Below are positions 15,718 to 54,187 of a DNA stretch of 64,000 nt, one piece after another. Where the stretch lies: contig CAVSBO010000003.1 of the NCBI GenBank assembly GCA_963726195.1, forward strand, positions 736,001 through 800,000, written 5' to 3'. The notes under the pieces are model-generated. The model saw nothing but the letters and a program-made list of their open reading frames with translations, had not been told where the DNA came from and ran no database searches. The DNA comes from Candidatus Thorarchaeota archaeon. GTDB taxonomy: Archaea; Asgardarchaeota; Thorarchaeia; Thorarchaeales; Thorarchaeaceae. How positions within the stretch are numbered: position 1 is the stretch's first letter; every line of letters begins with the position of its first letter. Both the position numbers and the translations under genes were made by a program.

Positions 15718-16926
15718 GTGCCCTTGACCGACCTCGAACGGTCCGTGATGCCATTCGCTGCCATAGTTGGACTAGATAGACTCAAGCTAGCCCTTATTCT
15801 CAATGGTGTTAACCCGAGGATTGGCGGCGTCTTGGTGTCGGGGCCCAAAGGAACCGGCAAGACTACGGCGGTCAGGGCGCTTGCGGACCTCCTGCCCGAA
15901 GTGAATGTTGTTGAGGGGTGTGTCTTTGGCTGCAAGCCGGCAAGTGATTTTCTCTGTCCTGAATGCCGAGATCGGCTTGAGAGACGAGAGGAACTCGAAA
16001 CACTGAGGCGAAAGATGCGTGTCGTGAATCTTCCGCTCTCGACCACAGAGGACCGACTCATTGGGTCTCTCGACATAGAGCGCGTTTTGAAGGACGGAGT
16101 TCAGGCACTGAGACCGGGTATACTAGCAGAAGCAAACCAGAACATCCTCTACGTGGACGAAGTGAATCTGCTACCAGACCACTTGGTTGACGACCTGCTC
16201 GACGCGGCAGCAACCAAGGTCAACGTGATCGAGAGAGAAGGCATATCGTTCGTACATCCTTCTGACTTTGTACTGGTCGGAACCATGAACCCGGAGGAGG
16301 GCGAACTGAGACCGCAGCTGCTCGACAGATTTCCACTCCACGTAGCCGTCGGTGGCGGTCTGAGTGTCGAGGACCGAATGGAGCTCGTCAGGCGGAATCT
16401 TGCCTTCGAAAAAGGCCCGAAGCAGTTCAGAGAGGATTGGTCAGAACGTCAATCCAGTCTCATGCAGAAGGTCATTCGCGGAAAGGAGATGCTCGATGAG
16501 GTTGTGCTTGCAGAATCGAGATTGAGGGCAATAGCGATGGCGTGTGACGCGCTCGAAGTGGATGGTGTAAGACCTGACATCATTATCAGCAAGACAGCCA
16601 TAACGAATGCCGCATTCGAAGGTCGAAAGGAAGTCACACTCGATGACATGAAGCTCGCTGCCCAGCTGGCATTGAGTCATAGAACAAGAAGGGGCGGTTT
16701 GCTGGAGCCTCCCTCTGCTGATGAGATAGACCGAGCAATCGCGAAGGCAGATGAGGTTGCACGCAAGCGAGATCATCGAGAGTCACCGGCAGAGGTTCCT
16801 CCCTCACCGGAGAGACAGACGGACCGAGCATCAGGGGGAGTCTTCGGCCGCCAACAGAAAACAGCTCAAGTTGGGGCCTCGGATGTAAAAAAAAGCTACA
16901 TCAGGGATAAGGAGACCGCGCGGTGA
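15718..16926 (+). CDS. ChlI/BchI-like AAA+ ATPase (chelatase small subunit or ChlD N-terminal part)
   Basis: [53 protein letters not shown]. Confidence 0.9.
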
Positions 16927-36404: not shown

Positions 36405-36588
36405 CAGATAGCTTGGTCTCGTGTGCAACAATCAACAAAGCTAATAACAACAAGGCGAGCTTAGTAAGATGGTTTGAGGGCAGACACATGATGCCCACCA
36501 ACCAGCTCCCGCTGTCCAACATGACAAAGCAAAGCAAGCATGCGTGGAACCCAATCTCACATTTACCCCTCACCCTAGGTGCAGGAAT

Positions 36589-39500
36589 ATGCGGATCGAT
36601 TCTTCGGGACCAAGAGAGACCCCGCTCCCTTTTGCCCATGGCATAGAGATAGAACTCCAAGTCATAAGAAAAGACGGTACGTGGATGAGGGGAAATGAGA
36701 TACTCGAGGTCTTCGACAAGCTAGTTTCAAATGCGAAGAACCTGTTGGAGAAGAGAATTAGAACTGCCGAACTAGCATCAGTCAAGACGAAATACAGGCG
36801 GTCTCAACAGACAGAGGAGGGCGAGAGAGGCTCAAGGATTGTAACAAGCTATGTGGACCCTGAGGGTGAGGTGAGGAGCTTCACCCTCATTGGCCATGAT
36901 CCGAATGTCACTAGTTTGACATGGATTCTGGAAGTCTCAACGCCACCATGCACGACACTCGAAGAGCTGGCCTGGTGGGTCCAGACGCTTGTGGCAATTA
37001 GCTACGAATCGTTGCCCAGGGACTCCCACAGCATAATGATCTCGACGGGCCTTAATCCAACCCAAGAGTATCTGAGAAATCTTTCGTTCGGCGAACATCA
37101 TCATATTCTCAGCAAGTCAACAGATGACAAGACGCGCATCGCCGTCTATAATATGATACGCAATTTCATGCCCCATCTCATTGCATTGTCGGTCAACTCG
37201 CCCTTTGAAAACAAGAAGCCTACGGATGTTGTTACTATTGACGACCAAGGTCGTACCCGGGCTCCTCGATGCAAACGCTCGATTCGTCTTCTCAGAAATA
37301 CTACACAGATGGGACCGACCAACGAATTCGAGCTTATACCCTACATCACCAACTTGGACAAGCAGAGTTTCGCAAAGCGTGTCAACAAGAGCTATGCACG
37401 CATGGTGGATGTTTATCCTTTCACTGATTACGATACAATAGAGGTGCGCGTGTTCGACACTCAACTGTCTGTTCCCCGGAGAGTTGGAATCGCGCTAATC
37501 CTGCAAGCACTGGCACTCAAGGCAAAGCACATGGTCGAGAAAGGAGAACCTGTTCCTGACGTCGGTGCCAAGTGCTTGGCTGCCAACCGCGAATCTGCAG
37601 TCGCGGGCAGGTTTGTGGGGTCCTTTCAAGTCTGCTGAGACCCGCGAAAACAATCGCTACATTACAACATACAATTCCACCATAGGTGAAGACGGGTCTA
37701 TCATGGAATCGAGACCGAATCGGTTCATGGCAGATGCGGTTTCGTCCATGTTTTACCTAATCAAGAAGGAATTGGAAGATCTCGGAGCGATTGACAATTC
37801 CTTCATGCAACCCCTTCTTGTTTCTCTGTTCGGAAGCGAATCCACAGAACCAAGAACAACTGGCGCAGACTTTCAGCTGGACGTGTATGCCAAATCCGAC
37901 ATGAATATTGTCGTCTTGCTAAAACGCTTGGCAGACATTACTCGGGAATGCTGCACAAACTGGCTCTACGACCCACTCGAGGGCACACCTCATATGCCAG
38001 CCTGGCTTTGCTGGTGGAAGGGACTTGAACCGGAAATTACGGTAGACTCTGATAGAATCTTCGGAGGTCAGGACGGTGGATTTTCAATATCGCTCAGAAA
38101 CTCGACGAGCCATAATTTTGAAAACGTATCCGTCGGCTACACAATCGAAGACTCTGAAAGACATGTGACAGACCATAGGGTCTTCTCTGTCGCCAGAATG
38201 ACTCCCCGCCAGATCAACAGGACTAAAATCCCCTTCAAGACAACCATGGGCGCCACTGCTTACAACATTATCGTGACGCTAGGAATCGCCGGGAAGTTCA
38301 TCAACCTCTCGACCACAATCAATACATATTGGATGAAAACGACAATCCGACCATCCGCAACCACACAGTTTGCCGATGGCCGCGGACGAGTCTCTTTTTC
38401 GGGGGAAATAGAAACTAACTACCCAAGCAGTATCCGACTGAACATAGGAGTATCAGTACTGTCAATCAAGAAGGAAACAGCACTCGCCCAGACATCCCGT
38501 GTCCAAATGGTAGAGAAGAGTGAAACGCTTCTTTTCGATGAGTCAGTGTTTCCTTCGCTCACCATTCCTGCAGATGCCTCACAGGGTGTCGAAAGATGCG
38601 TGCTCAGGATCGAGCTGGTAGATGAGGCGGGGGTCTTGGTTTCGAGTTCCACATCAAGACCGTTCTACATCGGATTCGTGAGCCAAGGCCCGACGATTCT
38701 TCTTAGAACGAATGCTAAATCTGTCCACGCCTCAGGTGACATGGTGCACGGAGAAGTCGAGCTCAGAGGCAGAGGGGGGCCTCTGCCTAGAGATGCAAGG
38801 TTGGTTATCGCATTCGTGTCAGATTCCGGGACAGCCCTTGGAATTGGTGAATGCAATGCGTCTGAGCTTCTTCGTGATACCTACCGCTTTGATTGGACAG
38901 TACCGCATATGGAGTCCGAGGAAACATCGGACAGGTCCGGAGCAATAGTTGCTCAGCTTCTGGATCAAAGAGAGGAAATCTCCAGGGCTGAGTCCGCAAG
39001 ACTTCGGATTGCTTTGCTTAACATAAGAATGAGTATTGACTCACTAAGGGTTCCCGAAAGGTCAATGGTCGGAGAAGCCGTATCCGGCTGGCTAAGGATA
39101 GAGAGAAACACGGACCTAGGGGACCCTGCGACACTCGTGATGAAGCTTCAATTTCCTAATGGAGAGGAACATCACATTGTGGAACAACCAATTAAGCCAA
39201 ACAAGAACCTCTCAGTCGCGTACGGGCCCATCGTGATACCGAAACCGACCAACGTTCCAAGTCCGAAGCTTGTCACTCTCATCGCCGAACTGCATTACGG
39301 AGGGGCCGTTCTCGATCGCAAGTCCGTTGACATCAATTTGACAGCAGGCCAAAGAGATGAAACACTGGCCCTGAGTGTAAGCGGCGTCCCGCGATTCGCC
39401 GCTCCCGATGAACTAGTGCGCATGGCTGTTGTCATCAGCAACAACTCTCCGGACAACATCAGATGCAATTTGATTGCTAGCCTGGATTCCATATTGGGCA

Positions 39501-40031
39501 TGAAGGAAATCCTAAATCAAGACCTAGAGCTTTCTTCACAACGGGCGAGAACCTTTGACGTTCCCTTCAGAGTGCCACTTGCTGCTGAGATGAGCTCAGC
39601 AGAACTGATACTTGTCGCAGATCATGATGGGAGCAAATGCGAAGCAAGGCACATCATCAAGGTCAAACCAATAGAACAAGCTCTATTTCATGTGGATTTC
39701 TCTCTGAAGAATGAAAGAGGCGAGGAAATCCGGGGTCTGGTCCCGCGACAATCCCCCCTTGACATAACTCTCAAAGTCATGTGCCCAAGGAGTGGAATCG
39801 AGAGTCTCGAAGTCAGCTCTTCGCATTATGTCGAGAAGGCAAGTTGTGGAGGAGTTCAGAATTCCTATGCCACCCAGCAACACGCTCAACTTCGACACCC
39901 GCGTCGGATGGGTAACACCGCCTGTAGAACTCGTGACAGGCTACTATCTTGAAGCTGTGGTCTCAGCTGATGGCAGAGCTCTCCCAGGCCGTGCAGTCAG
40001 TATTGCCGAGAGGCAATTCACAGTCTATTGA
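36589..40031 (+). CDS. Glutamate--cysteine ligase family 2 (GCS2/YbdK-like carboxylate-amine ligase) fused to multiple Ig-like beta-sandwich domains; frameshifts near 37605 and 39820
   Basis: HGIEIELQV, LEVSTPP, FGEHHH, LIALSVNSPF, TIEVRVFD; then ~600 aa of repeated beta-sandwich patterns. Confidence 0.8.
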
Positions 40032-42309: not shown

Positions 42310-43153
42310 TTGCAGTTCGAATTCCTGTTCAACAGCACGCTCTGGACATTCATGATTATCGTGCTCGCGTTTTTCGTGCTTATGTTCGTCGCGAGCGGAA
42401 TCAGGATCTTAAAGGAGTGGGAACGAGTCGCAGTACTTCGTCTCGGCAAGTTCAAGCATATAAAAGGCCCCGGCGTAATCTGGATTATGCCAATCCTCGA
42501 CAAGGTCGCGATGAAGGTTTCTCTTCGACTTCAAACCTACGCTTTCAAGACGGAGAGATCACTCACTCGAGACAACGTTCCAGTTGTCGTGGATGCAGTG
42601 ATGTACTTCAGGGTCATAGAAGTTGAGAAAGCAATCCTCAGCGTTGAGAGGTACGCTGTCGCCGTCGAGCTTGCTGCTCAGACGACACTCCGAGAGGTCA
42701 TAGGCAAGGCACCACTCGACGATCTATTGGCGGAGCGAGACAAGATTGCCGCACATCTGCAGGAAGTCATCGATCTCAAGACTGAACAGTGGGGTATCAA
42801 AGTAACGGCGGTCGAGATTAGAGATGTCGTCATTCCCACTCAGCTGCAGGACGCGATGAGCAGAGAAGCGCAAGCTGAGAGAGAGAAGAGCAAGGGTAAC
42901 GCTGGCTCAAGCAGAGCTGGAAGCCTCTACGGCCATGCTTCAGGCAGCTCGCATATACGAGGAATCGAGCGTCGGTTTTGCGTTGCGTATCTGGAACGTA
43001 ATCCAGCAGATTAGCACGAATGCCAGTCTGATTATGTTGGTGCCTACCAACATACCGGAAGTCGGTCTTAGTGCAGGCACTGCTGCTGCAATAGCGGCGG
43101 GTGCTGGTGGTCTCAAGCTTCAGAGGAAGAAGGCGGCTGAGACAGAGAGCTAG
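42310..43153 (+). CDS. SPFH/stomatin (slipin) protein, frameshift in a GA repeat near 42885
   Basis: EWERVAVLRLGK, GPG, LTRDNVPVVVDAVMYF, AQTTLR, WGIKVTAVEIRD, QAERE. Confidence 0.93.
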
Positions 43154-43188
43154 ACTACAAGCAATCGAAAAGAAGAGAGAGTGAGAAA

Positions 43189-43899
43189 ATGGACGCTTGG
43201 ATAAAGGTCATCGTCGTGCTGATGATGGTGTCGGCACTGAGCATGATCATAGGGGATCTAATGTTCGATCCATTTGTGGGCTTGATACTGTTGAGTGTCT
43301 TGCTCACATTGATGGTGGTGACCCTGGACCCAGCCACCGGAAAGGCGATGGCTCAGGTTACCATTCCAATCGTTCTCATTCTGTTCGCTTTTCAAGTATT
43401 CCTGAATCCGGGCTTCCAGTTCCAGATATGGATGCTCTTTGTGGTCGGCGCACTTCTGTACATGCTGTTCACCCTCTTTACTGGCGGTGGTGGAACTCTT
43501 GAAGGCGGAATCATCGATGCCAAGCTCTCTCTGAAGCTCTTTCCGCTCTATGGTCTGGCGATAATCATCTCGGTCATTGTGGACCCAACGCGCCGCACGG
43601 CAGTGTATATCATGGTCGGCACTGTGGGTTCACTGATGAGCCTGTACATGGTCTTCCTTCGCAACTACGACAAGTGGCCACAGTATACATACGGTAAGAC
43701 ACGCGATATCACCGCTCTCACAGACATCAATCCAAAGGGCAAAGTTGGGGTGGGATCGGAAATCTGGTGGGCCCGGACAACCGGCCCTCCCATCAGGCAG
43801 GGTGAGAAAGTCATTGTGAAGGCAATGACAGGGCTCACGATGATAGTCGCAAGAGATGAAGAGAGATACTCTCAGGCTGTAGAAGGCCGCAATGATTAG
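43189..43899 (+). CDS. NfeD-like membrane protein (stomatin operon partner)
   Basis: Six TM segments plus C-terminal OB fold INPKGKVGVGSEIWWAR..PIRQGEKVIV...GLTMIV. Confidence 0.8.
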   Translation: MDAWIKVIVVLMMVSALSMIIGDLMFDPFVGLILLSVLLTLMVVTLDPATGKAMAQVTIPIVLILFAFQVFLNPGFQFQIWMLFVVGALLYMLFTLFTGGGGTLEGGIIDAKLSLKLFPLYGLAIIISVIVDPTRRTAVYIMVGTVGSLMSLYMVFLRNYDKWPQYTYGKTRDITALTDINPKGKVGVGSEIWWARTTGPPIRQGEKVIVKAMTGLTMIVARDEERYSQAVEGRND

Positions 43900-45023: not shown

Positions 45024-46247
45024 TTGTCAGAAACACGGCGTCTGTTGTTGGATTACGAAACCGATGAAGTTGGTCGGCTGGCCAAGGATGATTCGAGAAT
45101 TCGAGCAGCTCTCATCCAAGCCTTTTCTGATTCATCTGAAATCGTTAGAGAGAGAGCCCTGTTGGCTGCAATCGAGCTCGGGGACCCTCATATTGTAACG
45201 GACGCGTCGAAGACCTTGACTGACGACGATGCTGATGTCAGAGTCGCAGCTGCTCAGCTACTGGCTTGGTATGGCCGAGCCGCGAACTGTTCCAGACCTC
45301 CTTAGGGGACTCAAGGACTCCAACACATGGGTTAGATCACACTGCGCTGCGGGGCTGTCAAAGCTCTTCCTGGCCCAACTTGGGCTCGTGTGCCCAGCAA
45401 GGACATCGACCTATTGGTCTCAGGCCTTCCCGGAATGAGTAATGACGACGTTAGCAGGTTCCTTACCGGACTGGGCATTCAATCCCAAGCGGCAGATCGG
45501 TTCATGACATGGCGCGATGCAAAGTTCAACGTCGAAATCGACATGAGAATAATGCTTGAGGAACTCGAGGGAAAACCCATCATACTGACCGAAGAGAGGA
45601 GGCCAACCAAAGGAAAGACGGTTGAAGCTCCGGGGCTAGCAAGAGGCCTCAGTTTGTCTCCGGGGGTTGAAGCAATACTGGCAGAGCTGCCGGAGCAAAT
45701 CAGAGCTACTCTGCCTCCTGAAGACTTGAGACGCCTGAATGCTACGACGGCTAGAGAACTGGTCGACTCACTCAAGGCGTCATTTCCACGCGAATCCAAG
45801 AAGCCCATCAAAGTTCGGAGAGTCAAGAGAGTCCGGAAGGTGGCGGTTGGACAGACACGAGAGGAATTGATAGGAAGTCTGCCCGACGAAGTGAAAGAGG
45901 AAGTTTCACCAGAGATAATGGACAGTTTGACCAAAGAGGAACTTGAAGCTCTGGTCGGCAAGTCCTCCGAGGAACAGGAGGTCGAGGTGGAGATCGGAGA
46001 GGAAGCCGCTCTGACAGAAGTCGCTGAAGAGCCAAAGGTAGTGGTCGCGAAAGTAGCTTCAGCACCGAGCACACAACAAGCTGATCCGCGTTGGCAGGAA
46101 TTGGTGACTGCTTACGGAGAGGCTAAAGCATACCTGCTCATACAAGTTCCACCCCACATGTTGGAAGGGCTACCGCCCGAACAGATACGGGAAATGGACA
46201 TGGACACTCTCAAGAGCCTCACTGACGCACTCAAGCCTAGGGAATAG
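45024..46247 (+). CDS. HEAT/PBS-repeat protein with repeated LP-x-E/Q helical motifs; frameshifts near 45270 and 45375
   Basis: DSSEIVRERAL, DDDADVRVAAAQLL, DSNTWVRSHCAAGL repeats; three LPxx(I/V/L)xxxxxPExxxx units. Confidence 0.7.
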
Positions 46248-46250
46248 GTA

Positions 46251-47522
46251 TCACTCTTTGCCGCGTATAACGATCGCAAACTCACTCGCAAGTCGCCCGT
46301 ACCATTCCAGAAGGTCCCGCATGTTGTCAACATGCCTGTAGGTACCATTGCCGTGGTCTGCCATAGCTAGCATGAGCTCTTCGTCAATCTCGCTCCGTTC
46401 ACCCAAGCCGATGCAATATACGACAAACTTCCTGTGACCAGAGAATCGTTCTTTCAGAATCTTCAGTGGAGCGGGCCCAGTAGTAGTCATTCCATCGGTC
46501 AGCATGATAAGCATAGTCGGTTTCTTGGGGTCACCAAAGGCGTCGAGTATCTCGCCAGCCTTCATCAGTGCATCTCCCATATTGGTGAGCGTGCCGCCCT
46601 CCTCCACCTTGTCGATGACATGCGTACTAATGACTTGTAGACCTAGGGCCTTGTTCTTTCCCGTGCATTCAACATACGGTCTTACGTCACCTGTGTCCGG
46701 GTCCATGAAAGTCATTTCACTTACTCCCTTTTCGAAAGTGATAACGGCCACTTTTTCACCATAGCCCCGGCCTACCTTTTCGGCAAGGTATAGTAGAACA
46801 GCCATCGCCGCGGCCTCGGCGCGGGTGACGCTCGTGCCTTCCTCGAATCGGTCTAGAAAAGCTTGGACGTCCGGATTGTCGCCGGCGAGGTCTTTGAGCC
46901 CCTCCCTTGCGTGAGCGATATCTTTCACGGGTACGTCGCCAGTCTTCATCGAACCGCTTGTATCGATGCAAAGGATTGCATTGAATGGCGTTGATATCCC
47001 CACAGTCTTGAACTGATAACCAGTCTTGTTCCTCAATGCCTCGAAGGCGAGCTTCGCGAAATTCCTGCCAGTAAGGGCCGGTCTTGTATTCAGTATCTCA
47101 ACCTTGACTCCTAGCTCGGGCCAGCTAAATGACATTCCCGGGTACACGAGCCGCCCTCCAATGAGCTTCTCAAGTGAGGACACTTTTTCCGCTGCGCGTG
47201 TCACGAGATCCTCGGTATTGGCATCCTCAGTTAGAGGCTTGAGGCCGAACTCGACGTAGTCAAGAGCAGTCATGGGGCGGTCGTACAGTGTCACATCAAC
47301 CCTATCGCCCTCCATCAACAAGGACGCTTCCAGCACAAGGCTGTCGACTATCATCTTGTTCTGAGGGACATCGGGGCTCTTTCGAATCTCGGCGGCGCCC
47401 CAGAAACCGCTCTCAGGATCTTCAAATAGCACGATGGAACCGATATCCGCTTTGAGAGTCTCAGCGGTTTTGGGATGAAGGCTCGCATAGCCCTTTAGCT
47501 CTCCGCCGTCGACGATTTCCAA
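46251..47522 (-). CDS. CDC48/VAT-N-like (double-psi barrel + beta-clam) domain fused to vWA domain with intact MIDAS
   Basis: ASLHPKTAETLKADIGSIV...MIVDSLVLEASLLMEGDRVDV; LIGGRLVYPGM; ILCIDTSGSM, TNMGDAL, LTDG, YCIGLG. The true start may be a few codons upstream. Confidence 0.75.
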   Translation of the reverse strand: MEIVDGGELKGYASLHPKTAETLKADIGSIVLFEDPESGFWGAAEIRKSPDVPQNKMIVDSLVLEASLLMEGDRVDVTLYDRPMTALDYVEFGLKPLTEDANTEDLVTRAAEKVSSLEKLIGGRLVYPGMSFSWPELGVKVEILNTRPALTGRNFAKLAFEALRNKTGYQFKTVGISTPFNAILCIDTSGSMKTGDVPVKDIAHAREGLKDLAGDNPDVQAFLDRFEEGTSVTRAEAAAMAVLLYLAEKVGRGYGEKVAVITFEKGVSEMTFMDPDTGDVRPYVECTGKNKALGLQVISTHVIDKVEEGGTLTNMGDALMKAGEILDAFGDPKKPTMLIMLTDGMTTTGPAPLKILKERFSGHRKFVVYCIGLGERSEIDEELMLAMADHGNGTYRHVDNMRDLLEWYGRLASEFAIVIRGKE

Positions 47523-47606
47523 GGTGAGTTTCTTAACGATACCGCGTTCCTCCGCCGAGATGACGGTGGATGGTCAGACTCTGATGTTATAAACAATTTC
47601 ACGCTA

Positions 47607-49121
47607 CTACTTCGTTTTGAGTGTCTCTAACACCTCGTCCGAGAGCGTATCAAACGAGTCTGCATACACAGTATGTTCATCGAGACTCTTTAGCAGAAGA
47701 GGCTCGGACCCCGGTAAGCCTAACCCGGTTGCGTTCGATCCCACGCCACCGCATGTGCTTGTCACTGCAAAACTGACGAGTTTGTCGGAACGGCGTCGCA
47801 CCCAAATGTGAAGCTCTTCAGCATCAGACCTTGACCTCAGCGTCAAGACGTAGCAATCAGCATCGACCCCACCTGCTGATGCCGTGGGTGACGCTTCAGG
47901 AGCCGCCGAGACACCCGGCGTTGGCAGAATGAGATCGAGAGACGAAACATCCCAATGCTCGTCTTTCACAACAGACATGAGGACATTCTCGAAACTATCA
48001 AGACCTTGACCCTTATCGTCTCTAAATGCGACCTGCTTAGGGCGCCGCCGACTCGTGCCACGTGTCGCAAAGGGCTTCTGTACTAAGTGGAGCGCGTTTT
48101 CTCCAAGTATTCTCTGGATATCCGATGAGTTTCCAATGAAATCCCTTGATAGTAAGTGCAAAATAGCTTCGGCCGCGTGAAGCGAGAAGAAACTGTAGTC
48201 AGTCCCAAAGAGGATTTTGCTGGACCAACTACTCGTGGACCCGACATTGTGTTCATGCGCCGTCTCCATCAACACCGGGAGGTCCTGACCATGAAGACCT
48301 GAAGTCTCAGTGAAGAAGACGGGGTCCATGAGAGTCTCATGGAGAAATGAATCGCCGGGACTCATGGCAGAATGTGCGACTATGATGTGCATTCCGGCCA
48401 GGCTTTCTGCGCATGATTCGTCTGAGCGCATTCCGTCCACGAGGTTCTTTATCCTTCTGACAGTCCTGATGTTCCTAGCGTCGAATATCACGGGAACTCG
48501 CAGCTCTCCGGCTTTTTTCACCACTCGTTTTGTTATGTCGTCTTCAATGTCATCCAGAAACAATTGAGCTAGCGGGTGCAACTTGAGACCGCGTAGTCCT
48601 AGCTGTGTGACTGCTCTCTGTAATTCTCGGACCGCTGTCTCAGCGCCAATTGTCCTCGCATCCGTAGGGTCAACGCGTGCAAAACCGATGAGCCGTGTTG
48701 AGTGAGGAGCTCTTGTCGTCCAGCTCGCGATTCTGTCATTTGAGAGCTTGAATGAGGCTACTAACTTGTTGTCGCTCTTGGCATAGTCGTCGGAGAAGGG
48801 AAACACTACTGTCCTATCGACAAGCCAGCCATGATTCATCTCAGCCCAGCTTTTTCTCAAATTGAAGCACTTTGAAACCACATGCAGCGGCTCGACATCC
48901 AAAGGCTCATAGAGGAGCTCATCCTTCTCAAGCCGCTCCTTGGCCATTCGCCGCAACTCGAACCAAAGAAGGGAGTAGAATGAGTAAGCTCCAGCAGGCG
49001 TGTTTTGGTGGCTGCCCTCACGTCCCATGTGATGATGAGCATCAACCACGTAGAACCGGAACACGTCTCCTTTCTTTATCCCATGCTCAGGTTGATCCTC
49101 AACGGCGCGGACAACGAGCAT
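47607..49121 (-). CDS. Amidohydrolase_2-family TIM-barrel metallohydrolase with C-terminal extension
   Basis: VDAHHHMG, IGFARVDP, LRGLKLHP, IVAH, ETS, ILFGTDY, ILGENA. Confidence 0.85.
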   Translation of the reverse strand: MLVVRAVEDQPEHGIKKGDVFRFYVVDAHHHMGREGSHQNTPAGAYSFYSLLWFELRRMAKERLEKDELLYEPLDVEPLHVVSKCFNLRKSWAEMNHGWLVDRTVVFPFSDDYAKSDNKLVASFKLSNDRIASWTTRAPHSTRLIGFARVDPTDARTIGAETAVRELQRAVTQLGLRGLKLHPLAQLFLDDIEDDITKRVVKKAGELRVPVIFDARNIRTVRRIKNLVDGMRSDESCAESLAGMHIIVAHSAMSPGDSFLHETLMDPVFFTETSGLHGQDLPVLMETAHEHNVGSTSSWSSKILFGTDYSFFSLHAAEAILHLLSRDFIGNSSDIQRILGENALHLVQKPFATRGTSRRRPKQVAFRDDKGQGLDSFENVLMSVVKDEHWDVSSLDLILPTPGVSAAPEASPTASAGGVDADCYVLTLRSRSDAEELHIWVRRRSDKLVSFAVTSTCGGVGSNATGLGLPGSEPLLLKSLDEHTVYADSFDTLSDEVLETLKTK

Positions 49122-49285
49122 CTACGCTCTTCTCCGTCAGACCTAATGCCAGTGTTCGTGATAAACATTTCATGTCAGTGACTCTGTCATCCGGACAAGA
49201 CCGGTTTGATGCGGTGCTCTCTGCATTAGGCATATATCGTTAGGCGCTGTGAACGATGCCATCGGCCAGAGTGGAGCTTGATTGA

Positions 49286-51947
49286 ATGATAGTCGTTGAG
49301 GACATCGAAAGCAGGGAAATCAAACCCTTGTTTATCGCCGACTCATTCGTTCAGCTCGGATTAGTCAGAGCCGGGACCGAAGTCCGTTCATTTGACCCCG
49401 GCAGGATACTATCCTTCTATGGCATGCTCGAAGGGCAGCTCCACGACTTGGCATCAAGGTATCCGGGGGCATTCAAGCATCTTCCTCGCAAAGCCTACGC
49501 CTATCTGAAGCGTCCCCCAATCTTGACCGAGATTCATTCCAGCGGCCTGGATCCTTCCAACACTAGCTGGTTTGTTGACCTGTTCTTTGCAAGACCCCTG
49601 ATATCCATTGGGGGGCAACAGACTTTCTGAACAGCATCAGAACAAGAATGCCGAACTAACCCGGAGGTGGTCTGAGCAGCTGCCTCACAGTCCTCGGTTC
49701 TACTATCTTCAGGATATGCGTCAAGGGAGAATCGGCTCACCAGGATGGGGTTGTGTTCTCAGTCCGACCGACTTGGGAAACTCACAGAGTGGGCCGAGTG
49801 GCTCGGAGCTCCGTCGATATGTGGAATCGGGATTACCAGTATTCATGGAGTGGACAAGTATGATGATCTGGATCTCTTGGTCAAGTGGTTAGTAGAGCTG
49901 AAAGAATGCCAAGATGGGCAGTCCAAATCTGATGCTTTCTGTACGGAGTTACAAGGAGTGGGGCGAGGGAATAACGAAGTTGCTCGAAATCCCGAGCGCC
50001 AGATTGCTGACCTCCGGGGCAACGATAGGGTTGCTCTCCACAGTAATATCACACCTTCGGAAGAACACTGACATCGTTCCATGGTCCAGCAAGCTCGTCT
50101 TCGGTAGCGGGTATCCTGAGACTCACACAGGTGATAGCATATCTGAGGTGTTGAGCTTCCTATTGAGTCGGAACTTGGCCGCTTCCACGGATGACCTGCA
50201 GCGGATATTTGCCACCAACTTGCTGTCAGTTCTGCCTCCGAGACCTCCTTTCCTCGACTACCGGAGCAGCAATGACACAGTGGTGTCAGAAGGAATGTTT
50301 GGTAAGGCATGTATCAAAGAACTGGCAAGAGTGCTTCTTTTGCTAGCGACAAAGGGAAGGCTCTATGTCTACTCTGTCGATCATATGCTGTCCAGTGACA
50401 GTGGCTCCGTAGACCTAAACTGCGGGATTGTTACTCTGAAGGACCCCGCCTCTTTGACCGCAAGTAGTCTGGCTATCCTCATCGAACGCGACGGCACTCT
50501 CAGGATTGCTGGTTGGCGAAACGCCTTTGGAGAAACTTCATCATCGAGAAGAAGCGAAGTTCTGGCGACACTGATCAGGGCCTCAACTCACTCCAGCGGT
50601 CCGATTCTGACTTCGCCGGCCCACTTGAGCCAATTCGATTGGGCGGTCCTAAGATGCCTTCAACTGAAGGATTCACAGGAAGTCCTCTCTTCTCTGCACT
50701 TCAAGGTGGAGCCAGATGATGTCCAGCCGCGACTTGTTGTTGTATCGCGTGATGATATGAATGCTCTCGGCCTATCTGAAGGGGATACTGTGCTAGCCCT
50801 AGTTGGAGGCACTGGAGAATGGTTATCGGCCAAGGCTGCACGGCACGAAGGCCCGAGCAGGCGGGTCCTGATATCCAGAAAGGACGCGCTCCTCTTTGGG
50901 CTCAGCGACCGGACTTTGGTAGATCTGGTGAAATACGAAGGCCATGTTTCTGAACTCGATGAGGCAGTGTTTTCATTCTCAATCTCCAAGCGATGGCCCG
51001 ATGGAGAACTCTCATCCTATATCTATCTGCATGATAAGCCTCTTAGAAGAGAACTTGAGAACCGAGCGTTAGGACTTGGCATGAAACTGAGGATCGGAAG
51101 AGGAGAGCACAAGCTAACCCTGAGCTTAGCTCATACAGAACCTGAACTTGTGCCTGGACAAGTTGGCGTCGCTCCTTCATCCGCAATATCATTCTGGCCA
51201 GCTCAGCTGCTCGAAGATGTGAATATCATCCTGTGTCTTCTAAATGACCAAAGCATGAAAACCAGAGACGTTAGAATAAGAACTGTGTCTTCTGCTCAGA
51301 GAAGGTTCACTCGCTTCTCTGGTCAAATGCCCGAGCTCGGTGCTTTCCTTTCCAGACTCGGAGCGCAGGCAACTCGGGCTGAACTGGCAGGCCTGATTTC
51401 CCTGTTGACAATCCAACAAATGTCTGCAAACCGTACCGAAGGACGCCTTGCCTTTGTAAGTATCTCGGACCAAGCACACAAGTACTGCATTCAGAAGGGG
51501 GGTCAAGTGCAGCCCTATGCCGAGTTCCTTCACGACCTGTCGACTCGCGAAGTCCTGATCTCACTTGTCTATTCTGTACTGGATTCGCTCGGTGAAGCTG
51601 ACAAGCAGTTAAACGTGGCGGCGGTCTATCATTCTGTTGCTGAGCTCTTGCAAGAATTCGGGACTGAAAGGCCTACTCTGGTCATAGTCATTGGAAATCA
51701 GCTGAAAGGCAATGAAGAAGAAGTTGAACCCTTCTTGAGCCGATTCTCGGAACTCGGCCGTTATCAGATGGACATTCTTGGCCTTGGAGATGACTTTGAT
51801 GCTAGGGAAACCCGCAAGATGGTCAAATCTCTGAACGCCCGCATAATCCCCATCAAGTCCTTCTCTGCGCAGCTCTATGATGATTACTTGCTGTCCGCCA
51901 TCGGTCGGCTATTGTCGGACAAGGCTCAAACCGGACCAAGTGACTAG
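49286..51947 (+). CDS. Fusion protein: degenerate amidohydrolase + CDC48-N-like + degenerate vWA; frameshifts near 49615, 49775 and 49910
   Basis: Four overlapping ORF pieces whose segments align by eye with the two minus-strand neighbours (see finding). Confidence 0.7.
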
Positions 51948-51975: not shown

Positions 51976-53106
51976 CTAAGTGATCATAGTCTGGTAAGTC
52001 TGGACAGCTGCCGTCTTCGATCCACAGAGAACTTCCACTCTCAAACTCGCCTTGCCCTTCTCATCCGACATCGCGATGAGCCCAACGTTGATGGTCTCGT
52101 CTGCTCTCGGGTTGATTTCATGCAGCTCATTCGCTATCTCGGACACCCCGTCAGATGTGATGAGACTAGCGACGATTCGAATCCCGACGTGTGCAGGACT
52201 AGGGTTTCGCACTCTGATTCTGAATGGAAAAGACTTACCCGGCAGTATTGTGTTCGGCACGTTTCCAAGTTCCACGGTGAGGCTTGTTTGAGATGGTGTC
52301 AGTGGTCGGCCACTTGGCCAAGCAGGAATTCGTCCTCAGCTCAATGAGCCTCGACAACGAGGTCTTGAATGCCCTAACTTCCAGGCCAAGCTCAGTCGCC
52401 GCTTCGCCTATATCGAAAACACCATCGTGAGAGACGTAGTGAGCAAGAATGCGCCGGTCGACTTCGATAAGGTCGCCCAAGCCCTCAAGTATTGTTAGGA
52501 TTGCCTCGGGAAGCTGGTAGGCTTCCGTTAGAGAATAGTACTTTCCACCATCAACAGACTCAGCAATGCTTCTGAAAGATTGCTCCACTAACGGATTGCA
52601 GACCGCAGACAAAAACGAACATCGTGTCGCCGTGAAGTCTCTTCAGCGACTGGACCTCAGACCGAGGATCATGTCCGTCGGGGCATCCGTCAGGGAAGTA
52701 GTCATCTGCGAGTGTGTTGTAGGTTCTCCCGTGAGGAGGCGCATCACCCACCAGAAGGAGGACCTTGTATGAATCCTTCTCCCACGAGAGCTTGGTTCGA
52801 GCATCGTAGAGACCGTCAGCTGACTGCCTCTGGGATATCGCCACCTTCAGACGGATTCAACGCCGAGATTTCCTTGTATACTGACTTGATCTTGTCAGTA
52901 AAATCGAAGACGCGCGTGACGTATGTGTAATCTTGTGGTGGATGGTCGCGATAAGAAACAATCCCGAATCGGATGTGCAATCCCTTTGTCCTTTCCACAA
53001 CTTTGTCCACTATTCGGAAAAGACTGTCTCGTACTGCATTTATGTCGTCCTTCATCGACCCCGTGGTATCGACAACGAAGGCGATATCCAGGTTCGTTTC
53101 TGCCAG
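51976..53106 (-). CDS. vWA domain + wHTH + Ig-like domain protein; frameshifts near 52820, 52610 and 52320
   Basis: NLDIAFVVDTTGSM, FGIVSYRDHPPQD, GGDIPEAV-ADGL, VGDAPPHG, DGCP; then DIGEAATELGL wHTH; then LPGKSFPFRIRVRNP beta-sandwich. Start codon uncertain (CTG after GGAGTGA). Confidence 0.75.
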
Positions 53107-53215
53107 CCCAATTCACTCCGGCTGTGCGTCGAGGACCAGCCGCAATTAAGCCTTTGTAACCACAGGCCACAGCACATTTTAGGTCTGAAGCTAAACGTTT
53201 GCTGTCGTGAGTTTG

Positions 53216-53608
53216 ATGAGTGAAAGCGAAGTGCCCATAGAACTCGAATTCGGAGAAGGACTGGTTCTGAAAGGCGTACTGGACCGAATCCTTGGCCCAC
53301 TGATAGTCGAGGAAATCAAGTACCGGCTCCCAATCACTGGGAAGGCCGCCGTGATTGCCGGACAGGTGAAAATTACCGTGGGGTTGAAAGCCGGGAATCT
53401 GAAAGCATCGACAGATGCCAAGCAAGGGGACATAGCGTACAACCCGCTAGGAGACTCTCTCGATATCTACCTGAAGGACATGCATGTTACTGGTCGAGTC
53501 AACATAATCGGGAGGATAACATCGAGCAAGGATTCTCTGGAAAAGTTAGCGAGCATAAGACGAGGTGCCAATGTCCTTATCCGCTCCGCAAGTCAGGCAA
53601 AGCGATAG
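53216..53608 (+). CDS. Cyclophilin-like fold protein (DUF369/TM1367-like)
   Basis: LPITG...GQV, GDIAYNPLGDSLDIY, VNIIGRI. Confidence 0.7.
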   Translation: MSESEVPIELEFGEGLVLKGVLDRILGPLIVEEIKYRLPITGKAAVIAGQVKITVGLKAGNLKASTDAKQGDIAYNPLGDSLDIYLKDMHVTGRVNIIGRITSSKDSLEKLASIRRGANVLIRSASQAKR

Positions 53609-53635: not shown

Positions 53636-54187
53636 CTATGTTCGTTCGAGGTTCCTGATAAGAGCCTCGACCTTGTCCGCCAATTCCTCTGACGGATCAA
53701 CTGTGATTCCGGGATCGTGTGTCTCGATGACAACTTCCATTCCCGAATCAGTGACTTTCTTGAACCCCATCCTAGACGTCGCTCTTACCCTCAACTGAGT
53801 TGTATCGAACTCTGTCTTGTGAGTGGTGCCGACGGTCTGGGATTCCCTCGGGGTTTTCGGTCTCATCAGCCGGAGTTGTTCCTTGAGCTCCGCAACTTCA
53901 ACCTGTAGCTGGTTCTTCATTGTTATGGCATCGCTCAATCTGCCCTTCACTGCTTCGTGCTCCGAACGCTGAACATAATCGGCAGAACGGTCAACCCACA
54001 TTAGTGTGGTTCCATCGGATTTCCGCTTGGTCGTCACAAGGCCCAACGTCTTGAGAACCGCGACTATGTCGTACACTCTTCTCTTGGGGCTTTCAAGCAT
54101 GCCAGCCAACACGTCACTGCGAATACCCTGGGGTCCGGCCTCTTCGATGAGCTCAATGGATTTGTGGGCCAACTCGACGAGCTTCAA
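53636..54187 (-). CDS. E2F/DP-like winged-helix protein with coiled coil and C-terminal beta region
   Basis: LAHKSIELI...LAGMLESPKRRVYDIVAVLKTLGLV...TLMWV matches the E2F/DP DNA-binding pattern (KRRIYDITNVLEGIGLI..W); TTG start after GGGGTGA. Confidence 0.75.
   Translation of the reverse strand: MKLVELAHKSIELIEEAGPQGIRSDVLAGMLESPKRRVYDIVAVLKTLGLVTTKRKSDGTTLMWVDRSADYVQRSEHEAVKGRLSDAITMKNQLQVEVAELKEQLRLMRPKTPRESQTVGTTHKTEFDTTQLRVRATSRMGFKKVTDSGMEVVIETHDPGITVDPSEELADKVEALIRNLERT

Follow-up and report, generated by a model that had tools for sequence, protein, structure and literature searches.

The 64,000-nt stretch of Candidatus Thorarchaeota archaeon analysed here (the window; GCA_963726195.1, contig CAVSBO010000003.1, positions 736,001-800,000) carries a plus-strand gene, at 49286-51947 of the window, whose single-chain product is paralogous to the entire unit of two proteins on the opposite strand, namely an amidohydrolase and a protein in which a Cdc48N-like domain precedes a von Willebrand factor A (vWA) domain. 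With a probability of roughly 0.7, we read this gene as a fused, catalytically dead paralogue of the hydrolase-vWA unit that acts as an autonomous non-catalytic binder, the active pair itself belonging to a three-gene Asgard system together with a GCS2-type ligase. An earlier note, made from the letters of the window, had drawn attention to the fusion and proposed that it forms a heterocomplex with its active neighbours. Throughout, G000 denotes the genome of the window and G002 a same-genus genome of ~87% nucleotide identity; f1 is the Thorarchaeal family of the window genome, f2 its sister family, and other f numbers are further Asgard families.

A single-chain paralogue of the hydrolase-vWA unit

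Both active genes lie where the earlier note had placed them, and the locus is laid out as follows.

46251..47522, minus strand: Cdc48N-like plus vWA protein with intact metal-ion-dependent adhesion site (MIDAS), 423 aa; N domain ~aa 1-175, vWA aa 176-423
47607..49121, minus strand: Amidohydro_2-type metal-dependent TIM-barrel hydrolase, 504 aa; C-terminal domain ~150 aa
49122..49285, no strand: divergent intergenic region between pair and fusion, 164 bp; segment CTGCATTAGGCATATATCG identical in G002
49286..51947, plus strand: fusion pseudoenzyme gene, 886 aa with three very probable 1-nt errors read through
49328-50246 (approximate), plus strand: dead amidohydrolase barrel of the fusion
50280-50513 (approximate), plus strand: beta domain of the fusion
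50520-50687 (approximate), plus strand: helical linker of the fusion
50700-51200 (approximate), plus strand: Cdc48N-like domain of the fusion
51213-51920 (approximate), plus strand: MIDAS-less vWA domain of the fusion

Full-length homology was tested by comparing orthologue profiles with hhalign, pairwise BLASTP alone being insufficient. Residues 7-421 of the fusion align with 1-451 of the amidohydrolase (probability 99.6%, E 5.7e-25, 397 columns) and residues 474-873 with 1-400 of the vWA protein (probability 99.7%, E 2.1e-25, 397 columns); the plus-strand gene does repeat both neighbours, in the same order and end to end, as had been claimed from short motifs. Every motif pair listed in support of that claim falls in aligned columns, and the length given for the repaired frame, ~880 aa, comes to 886 aa. 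Pairwise alignment recovers the relationship in part: the long piece of the fusion matches the vWA protein (BLASTP E 2e-14, 24% over 197 aa) and the fusion matches the last third of the amidohydrolase, that is, the barrel end and C-terminal domain (E 9e-7), whereas its three N-terminal open reading frame (ORF) pieces gave no significant match to the amidohydrolase in pairwise BLAST or tblastn, so that profiles are needed there. Family-specific features common to fusion and hydrolase include the MLVVED...VVD start, the WLVD, SPRL and WS.K..FG..Y motifs, the LLSR..../DIQRILGGN helix and the hydrolase C-terminal beta domain, and fusion and vWA protein have in common a long, family-specific insertion following the first vWA strand. 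In an AlphaFold model of the fusion (pLDDT 86.4, pTM 0.75), residues 31-333 form an Amidohydro_2 barrel (structural matches 3cjp and 4dlf, 16.7 and 16.3) and residues 657-888 a vWA fold (structural match 4fx5, 19.1).

The active sites have fared differently in the two copies. Across 19 orthologues of the hydrolase, H29/H31, K180/H182, H250 and D308 are invariant, and the same ligands are retained in the active enzymes of f6, f7 and f19; the corresponding positions (HxH, K180/H182, H250, D308) are replaced in all 13 fusions compared, which came from f1, f2, f7 and f19. The N half of the fusion reaches only 11.4 bits against Amidohydro_2, below the Pfam cut-off of 26.4 bits, and retains the TIM-barrel fold. 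The MIDAS residues (DxSxS, Thr, Asp) are invariant across the vWA family, long Loki-type forms included, and are gone from all Thorarchaeal fusions, but the f7 fusions retain DxTxT. The earlier statement that all metal ligands are lost therefore holds for the hydrolase ligands in every fusion and for the MIDAS of the Thorarchaeal copies; it does not extend to the MIDAS of f7.

In G000 the fusion reads as four overlapping ORF pieces that alternate between two frames from 49286 to 51947. G002 has an open frame over the region and differs from G000 by exactly three single-base indels:

49620..49624, plus strand: indel 1, an extra base at 49621 within AGACT (alignment to G002, motif check)
49848..49852, plus strand: indel 2, one base short after 49850 (GAG-T in G000, GAGCT in G002; alignment to G002)
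49896..49901, plus strand: indel 3, an extra A (49901) directly after AGCTG (alignment to G002)

All three fall in an AGCT-type motif class that covers ~6% of window positions, and such a coincidence is therefore unlikely by chance; the same signature occurs at the frame junctions of a neighbouring VWA_4 gene and of the ligase gene. Once the indels are read through, the first 326 codons are free of stops, and the remaining 2 kb of the gene are intact as they stand. The ratio of nonsynonymous to synonymous substitution rates (dN/dS) against G002, a check that the earlier note had proposed, is 0.10 overall and 0.17 in the segment otherwise out of frame, indicating purifying selection. From the motif-site indels, the absence of stops and the low dN/dS it follows that the fusion gene is almost certainly intact, at 886 aa. 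The three breaks are very likely, though this is not proved, artefacts of assembly and not gene decay; what had been taken for frameshifts in need of repair would then belong to the assembly, and in practical terms a frameshift in this assembly is best treated as an artefact linked to AGCT and not as the sign of a pseudogene.

Conservation and origin of the fusion

An intact frame of 870-920 aa was present in 22 of the 24 same-family genomes first sampled, and a full-length frame in 70 of 76 in a wider sample as well as in the sister family f2, the intact gene of these ~70 relatives being 870-900 aa long. Compared with the copy in genome G003, orthologues across f1 genera show 31-46% identity and the G000 copy 55%. 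The order of vWA gene, hydrolase gene and divergent fusion gene was found in all 17 complete Thorarchaeal loci read for synteny (f1 and f2), with the fusion intact and not decayed in relatives. In G011, also of f1, the pair lies ~17 kb from the fusion, and in f7 and f19 the fusion is 10.7-12 kb from the pair and on the same strand. The head-to-head arrangement is thus a Thorarchaeal feature and not necessarily the original state, and the earlier suggestion of an inverted duplication is not supported as it stood. The gene that follows the fusion in relatives is absent from the 64-kb window.

In maximum-likelihood trees a single branch sets the halves of the fusion apart from the active families (support 99/100 for the N half and 100/99 for the C half), with f1, f2, f7 and f19 represented on either side of it. 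These trees fit one duplication, fusion and inactivation before the four families diverged, and bear out the earlier proposal of an ancient duplication with fusion. The pair occurs without a fusion in f6, f9, f22, f24 and f27. Fusion branches are several-fold longer than those of the vWA proteins; the fusion is faster-evolving than the active genes yet under purifying selection.

The active pair and its probable ligase partner

The active genes are recognizable at the domain level. Amidohydro_2 (PF04909) matches the gene at 47607-49121 at 34 bits, and VWA_2 matches that at 46251-47522 at 34.9 bits against a cut-off of 27; Pfam CDC48_N matches six of 19 vWA family members. In the AlphaFold model of the vWA protein (pLDDT 85), residues 174-423 form a canonical vWA domain (structural match 4fx5, 21.7), and a structure search finds the N half to resemble the N domains of p97/Cdc48. 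The f1 orthologues are 43-77% identical to the G000 copy for the hydrolase and 75-94% for the vWA protein, and such identity across a family implies very strong constraint on the vWA subunit. The two genes are tightly coupled, with a single stop codon between them in four genomes, and are fused in none; apparent open frames of 950-965 aa that span both in some genomes were discarded, being adjacent in-frame genes split by stops.

Where the vWA gene starts is uncertain (region 47523-47606). A conserved peptide (..GIVKKLT LEIVDGG) runs upstream of the TTG at 47522; there is no ATG, GTG or TTG between the in-frame TGA and that TTG, and an AGTCT motif lies just upstream. In f9 and f24 (loci L041, L042, L044 and L045) the vWA family proteins are 580-765 aa long, with one or two extra N-domain-like repeats before the Cdc48N-vWA core, and their genes are not adjacent to the hydrolase gene.

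Prediction of a complex between hydrolase and vWA protein, in three runs and with three controls on our own alignments, gave an ipSAE of 0.71 (runs 0.71, 0.73 and 0.55), the best of the controls scoring 0.00. At least 67% of contacts are common to the runs, and partner pLDDT is at least 78. Of 80 solved complexes 58 reach this mark, as do two of 110 mismatched pairs, counts that hold only roughly here since our own alignments were used. We know of no similar solved complex, and it is therefore unlikely that the pair passed from the model's memory. The predicted interface covers the catalytic face of the barrel (hydrolase residues 33-58, 184-189, 216-220, 250, 253, 275-280 and 313-317), and on the vWA protein it comprises N-domain loops 5-8, 38-39, 61-73 and 95-102 and vWA segments 175-179, 203-214, 250-255 and 287-291. 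Interface residues flank or include catalytic positions in the model, and the N-domain loop at aa 61-73 is predicted in the mouth of the active site. The models thus support a heterodimer in which the vWA protein would cap the catalytic face of the hydrolase.

A third gene accompanies the pair:

36544..39952, plus strand: GCS2-family carboxylate-amine ligase, ~1150 aa in relatives, here two ORFs with a frameshift near 37565-37638

GCS2 (PF04107) matches it at 29.5 bits (cut-off 21), and its G030 orthologue at 39.1 bits. In relatives the frame is unbroken, at 1143-1185 aa, and continues far past the GCS2 domain. The frameshift junction in the window (37565-37638) contains AGTCT.

Among 301 Asgard genomes in 30 families, vWA protein, hydrolase and ligase occur in the same ten families and in none of the other 20, for example:

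f1 (76 genomes): vWA 66, hydrolase 65, ligase 63
f9 (68 genomes): vWA 61, hydrolase 62, ligase 61
f19 (6 genomes): vWA 6, hydrolase 6, ligase 6
f22 (21 genomes): vWA 16, hydrolase 15, ligase 16
f27 (11 genomes): vWA 11, hydrolase 10, ligase 11
f5 (28 genomes): vWA 0, hydrolase 0, ligase 0
f12 (19 genomes): vWA 0, hydrolase 0, ligase 0
f14 (11 genomes): vWA 0, hydrolase 0, ligase 0

The identical family sets, together with the ipSAE of the predicted complex, support the earlier idea that the fusion serves as a Rosetta stone for cooperation between hydrolase and vWA protein. In f9, f22 and f28 the ligase and hydrolase genes point the same way and either lie next to each other or overlap. Only 54 bp separate the vWA gene from the start of the ligase gene, on the opposite strand, in f7 (G030); f6, f7 and f19 have a ligase match within ~2.5-4 kb of the pair, and f7 and f19 have a second ligase copy ~3-6 kb from a second hydrolase or pair. 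In Thorarchaeia the ligase is 7-10 kb from the triad. Family-level pattern and repeated adjacency strongly link ligase, hydrolase and vWA protein, and support an Asgard-wide three-component system. An exhaustive profile search returned 86 cluster representatives at E <= 1e-30, of which every named member is from Asgard (Promethearchaeota or Hermodarchaeota) and is annotated only as a hypothetical or VWA-domain protein. Our literature search found no description of the ligase-hydrolase-vWA system, and searches of NCBIfam and PADLOC returned no informative family, and so no sign of a known defence system.

Several further genes lie around this system. Convergent on the vWA gene is a HEAT-repeat gene:

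45024..46247, plus strand: HEAT-repeat protein, fragmented here

It holds its position next to the vWA gene in the five relatives tested and abuts the fusion directly in G007, where the pair is missing. An SPFH/Band_7 gene (42310-43899, here with NfeD), ~2.4 kb beyond the vWA gene, recurs near the system, flanking the fusion divergently in f7 and f19 (L033:12987-13922; L043:350-1354). On the other side, a third vWA gene (Pfam VWA_4, 51976-53425, minus strand) converges on the fusion gene and is split among three or more ORF pieces with junctions near CAGACT (52556) and TCAGCTGA (52818); G017 has a single intact VWA_4 + CARDB gene at the same position. Beyond it lies a gene for an E2F/DP winged-helix protein (53636-54187, minus strand; Pfam E2F_TDP, E 6.9e-9).

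Proposed function, alternatives and known relatives

We hypothesize that the GCS2-type ligase makes an amide bond that the hydrolase removes, in a write/erase cycle, and that the vWA subunit gates the active site of the hydrolase or recruits its substrate. The fused dead copy would bind the same ligand or partner autonomously and without catalysis, as a reader, decoy or scaffold. The 164-bp divergent region may act as a shared promoter, and the fusion is probably co-regulated with the pair in Thorarchaeia. We do not expect the fusion to be an obligate subunit of the active enzyme. The size of the ligase and the predicted capping by the vWA subunit favour macromolecular recognition but do not settle the matter, a protein and a small-molecule substrate both being possible. 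Several points weigh against this proposal as a whole: the DxTxT of the f7 fusion could still bind metal, the complex score is the model's confidence and was built on our own alignments, and co-occurrence at family level is not phylogenetically independent. Moreover, Amidohydro_2 enzymes also include decarboxylases, lactonases and hydratases, and the head-to-head layout in most Thorarchaeia fits a physical partnership of fusion and pair as well.

The alternative that survives best, and which we regard as possible but tentative, is a small-molecule pathway in which a transient gamma-glutamyl-type ligation is followed by amidohydrolysis, as in the Puu and ergothioneine pathways, the vWA protein being only regulatory and the fusion a ligand sensor. 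Most substrates of the GCS2 and Amidohydro_2 families are small molecules, and ligase and hydrolase form a tight operon. Set against this are the length of the Thorarchaeal, f7 and f19 ligases (1140-1400 aa, with a long extension past the GCS2 domain), the predicted capping of the active site by a Cdc48N-vWA subunit and the exceptional conservation of that subunit, which speak for macromolecular recognition, although none is decisive.

The earlier note had proposed an enzyme/pseudoenzyme heterocomplex. An obligate role of the dead fusion in it, as a regulatory or structural subunit bound to the active hydrolase, the vWA protein or both, is unlikely. Such a complex would suit the head-to-head layout over a 164-bp shared spacer in 17 of 17 complete Thorarchaeal loci, and fusion and pair do co-occur in most f1 genomes, but the two can be parted in either direction. 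G013 (98% complete) and G018 (95%) have the fusion and no detected ligase, hydrolase or vWA gene, and G007 (97%) has the fusion with only a divergent GCS2 gene and no detected hydrolase or vWA gene; the distant, same-strand fusions of f7 and f19 and the five families with a pair and no fusion point the same way. Genera g12 and g14 lack all four genes. The three active genes, then, tend to be lost together, and the fusion can persist alone, which makes an obligate enzyme/pseudoenzyme complex unlikely.

The earlier note had pointed to CDC48-N and vWA domains as typical AAA+ adaptors. A protein-remodelling module in which the Cdc48N-vWA proteins serve an AAA+ unfoldase of Cdc48, MoxR or ChlI type as adaptors appears improbable. 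The N domain does have the fold of that of p97/Cdc48/NSF, and partnerships of vWA proteins with MoxR and ChlI are well known; however, neither the flanking genes tested in relatives nor the genes between ligase and triad in the window include an AAA+ gene, the ChlI-like gene at 15718 is ~30 kb away, and the partner that is conserved is the GCS2-type ligase. Least probable is that the plus-strand gene has recently decayed into a true pseudogene in this genome, for although three frame breaks within 280 bp leave it in four ORF pieces, all three lie at AGCT-type sites of the kind also found at the frame junctions of neighbouring genes, the ligase included, and the corrected frame combines an absence of stops with a dN/dS of 0.10 and an intact further 2 kb.

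Among known proteins, the hydrolase is closest to Amidohydro_2 (PF04909) TIM-barrel enzymes such as PDB 3cjp, 4dlf, 3nur and 2f6k, from which it differs in an extra C-terminal domain of ~150 aa and in a dedicated vWA partner predicted over its active site; the fusion copy differs further in lacking all of the ligands. Kin of the vWA domain include bacterial vWA 4fx5, ITIH1, TFIIH p44 and Rpn10, and the nearest PDB sequences, in a search that gave weak matches only, are the Sulfolobus ArnB paralogue 5a8j and ArnAB 8s05. Unlike these, the vWA domain here is preceded by a Cdc48N-type domain and has its family-specific insertion after the first strand, and that of the fusion is without a MIDAS. 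The N domain shares with those of Cdc48/p97/NSF and Ufd1 a double-psi barrel and a second beta subdomain (root-mean-square deviation 3.4-4.0 A over ~180 columns), but it is followed by a vWA domain and by no AAA+ ATPase domain, and the protein is therefore not a member of the Cdc48 family.

The best whole-chain Foldseek matches for both vWA protein and fusion, ahead of p97 N-D1, are DEPDC5 and Iml1/Sea1 of GATOR1/SEACIT (vWA protein E 3.4e-12, 426 columns; fusion E 2.5e-11), with a TM score of 0.26 and with p97 N-D1 nearly as good. The N-terminal domain (NTD) of DEPDC5 resembles the NSF N domain, and its SABA domain resembles a domain in Sec23 (PMC8534245). On this description the order NTD-SABA in DEPDC5/Iml1 would correspond to the domain order of Cdc48N-vWA. 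SABA is not known to have an intact MIDAS, whereas that of the vWA protein is intact, and the vWA protein is without the SHEN, DEP and C-terminal (CTD) domains. Pfam IML1 (PF12257) has no match at E <= 10 in the whole genome and none in 19 vWA family members, an NPR2 search of the genome gave only a 10-bit match, far away, and ESM Atlas searches by features and by shape returned generic vWA clusters only and no IML1. NPRL2-like proteins have been reported in most Thor metagenome-assembled genomes (Liu et al., bioRxiv 10.1101/2020.10.19.343400), and in two papers on Asgard/GATOR1 we saw no mention of a DEPDC5-like partner. We think it very doubtful that the Cdc48N-vWA family, dead copy included, is the archaeal counterpart of the DEPDC5/Iml1 NTD-SABA module. 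Should the likeness reflect descent, the locus would bear on the origin of eukaryotic nutrient signalling, and ligase, hydrolase and vWA protein would make up a nutrient- or amide-sensing module predating eukaryotic Rag/TOR regulation.

As a whole, the ligase, hydrolase and Cdc48N-vWA protein appear to form a conserved, unannotated system restricted to Asgard archaea, with a whole-complex pseudoenzyme carried additionally by one Thorarchaeal lineage group. The system is reminiscent of the amide ligase/hydrolase cycles PafA/Dop, PuuA/PuuD and EgtA/EgtC, in which a glutamine-synthetase-fold ligase is paired with a hydrolase, except that the hydrolase here is a TIM-barrel amidohydrolase and neither a homologue of the ligase nor an Ntn hydrolase. 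Like Rosetta-stone fusions, the plus-strand gene reveals the partnership of two separate proteins, and it provides natural evidence of which proteins touch. Like other enzyme/pseudoenzyme pairs, it is a dead paralogue kept under selection beside an active relative; unlike them, it mirrors a whole two-subunit complex in one chain. It is a clear example of how an enzyme of two subunits can become a non-catalytic protein of one chain.

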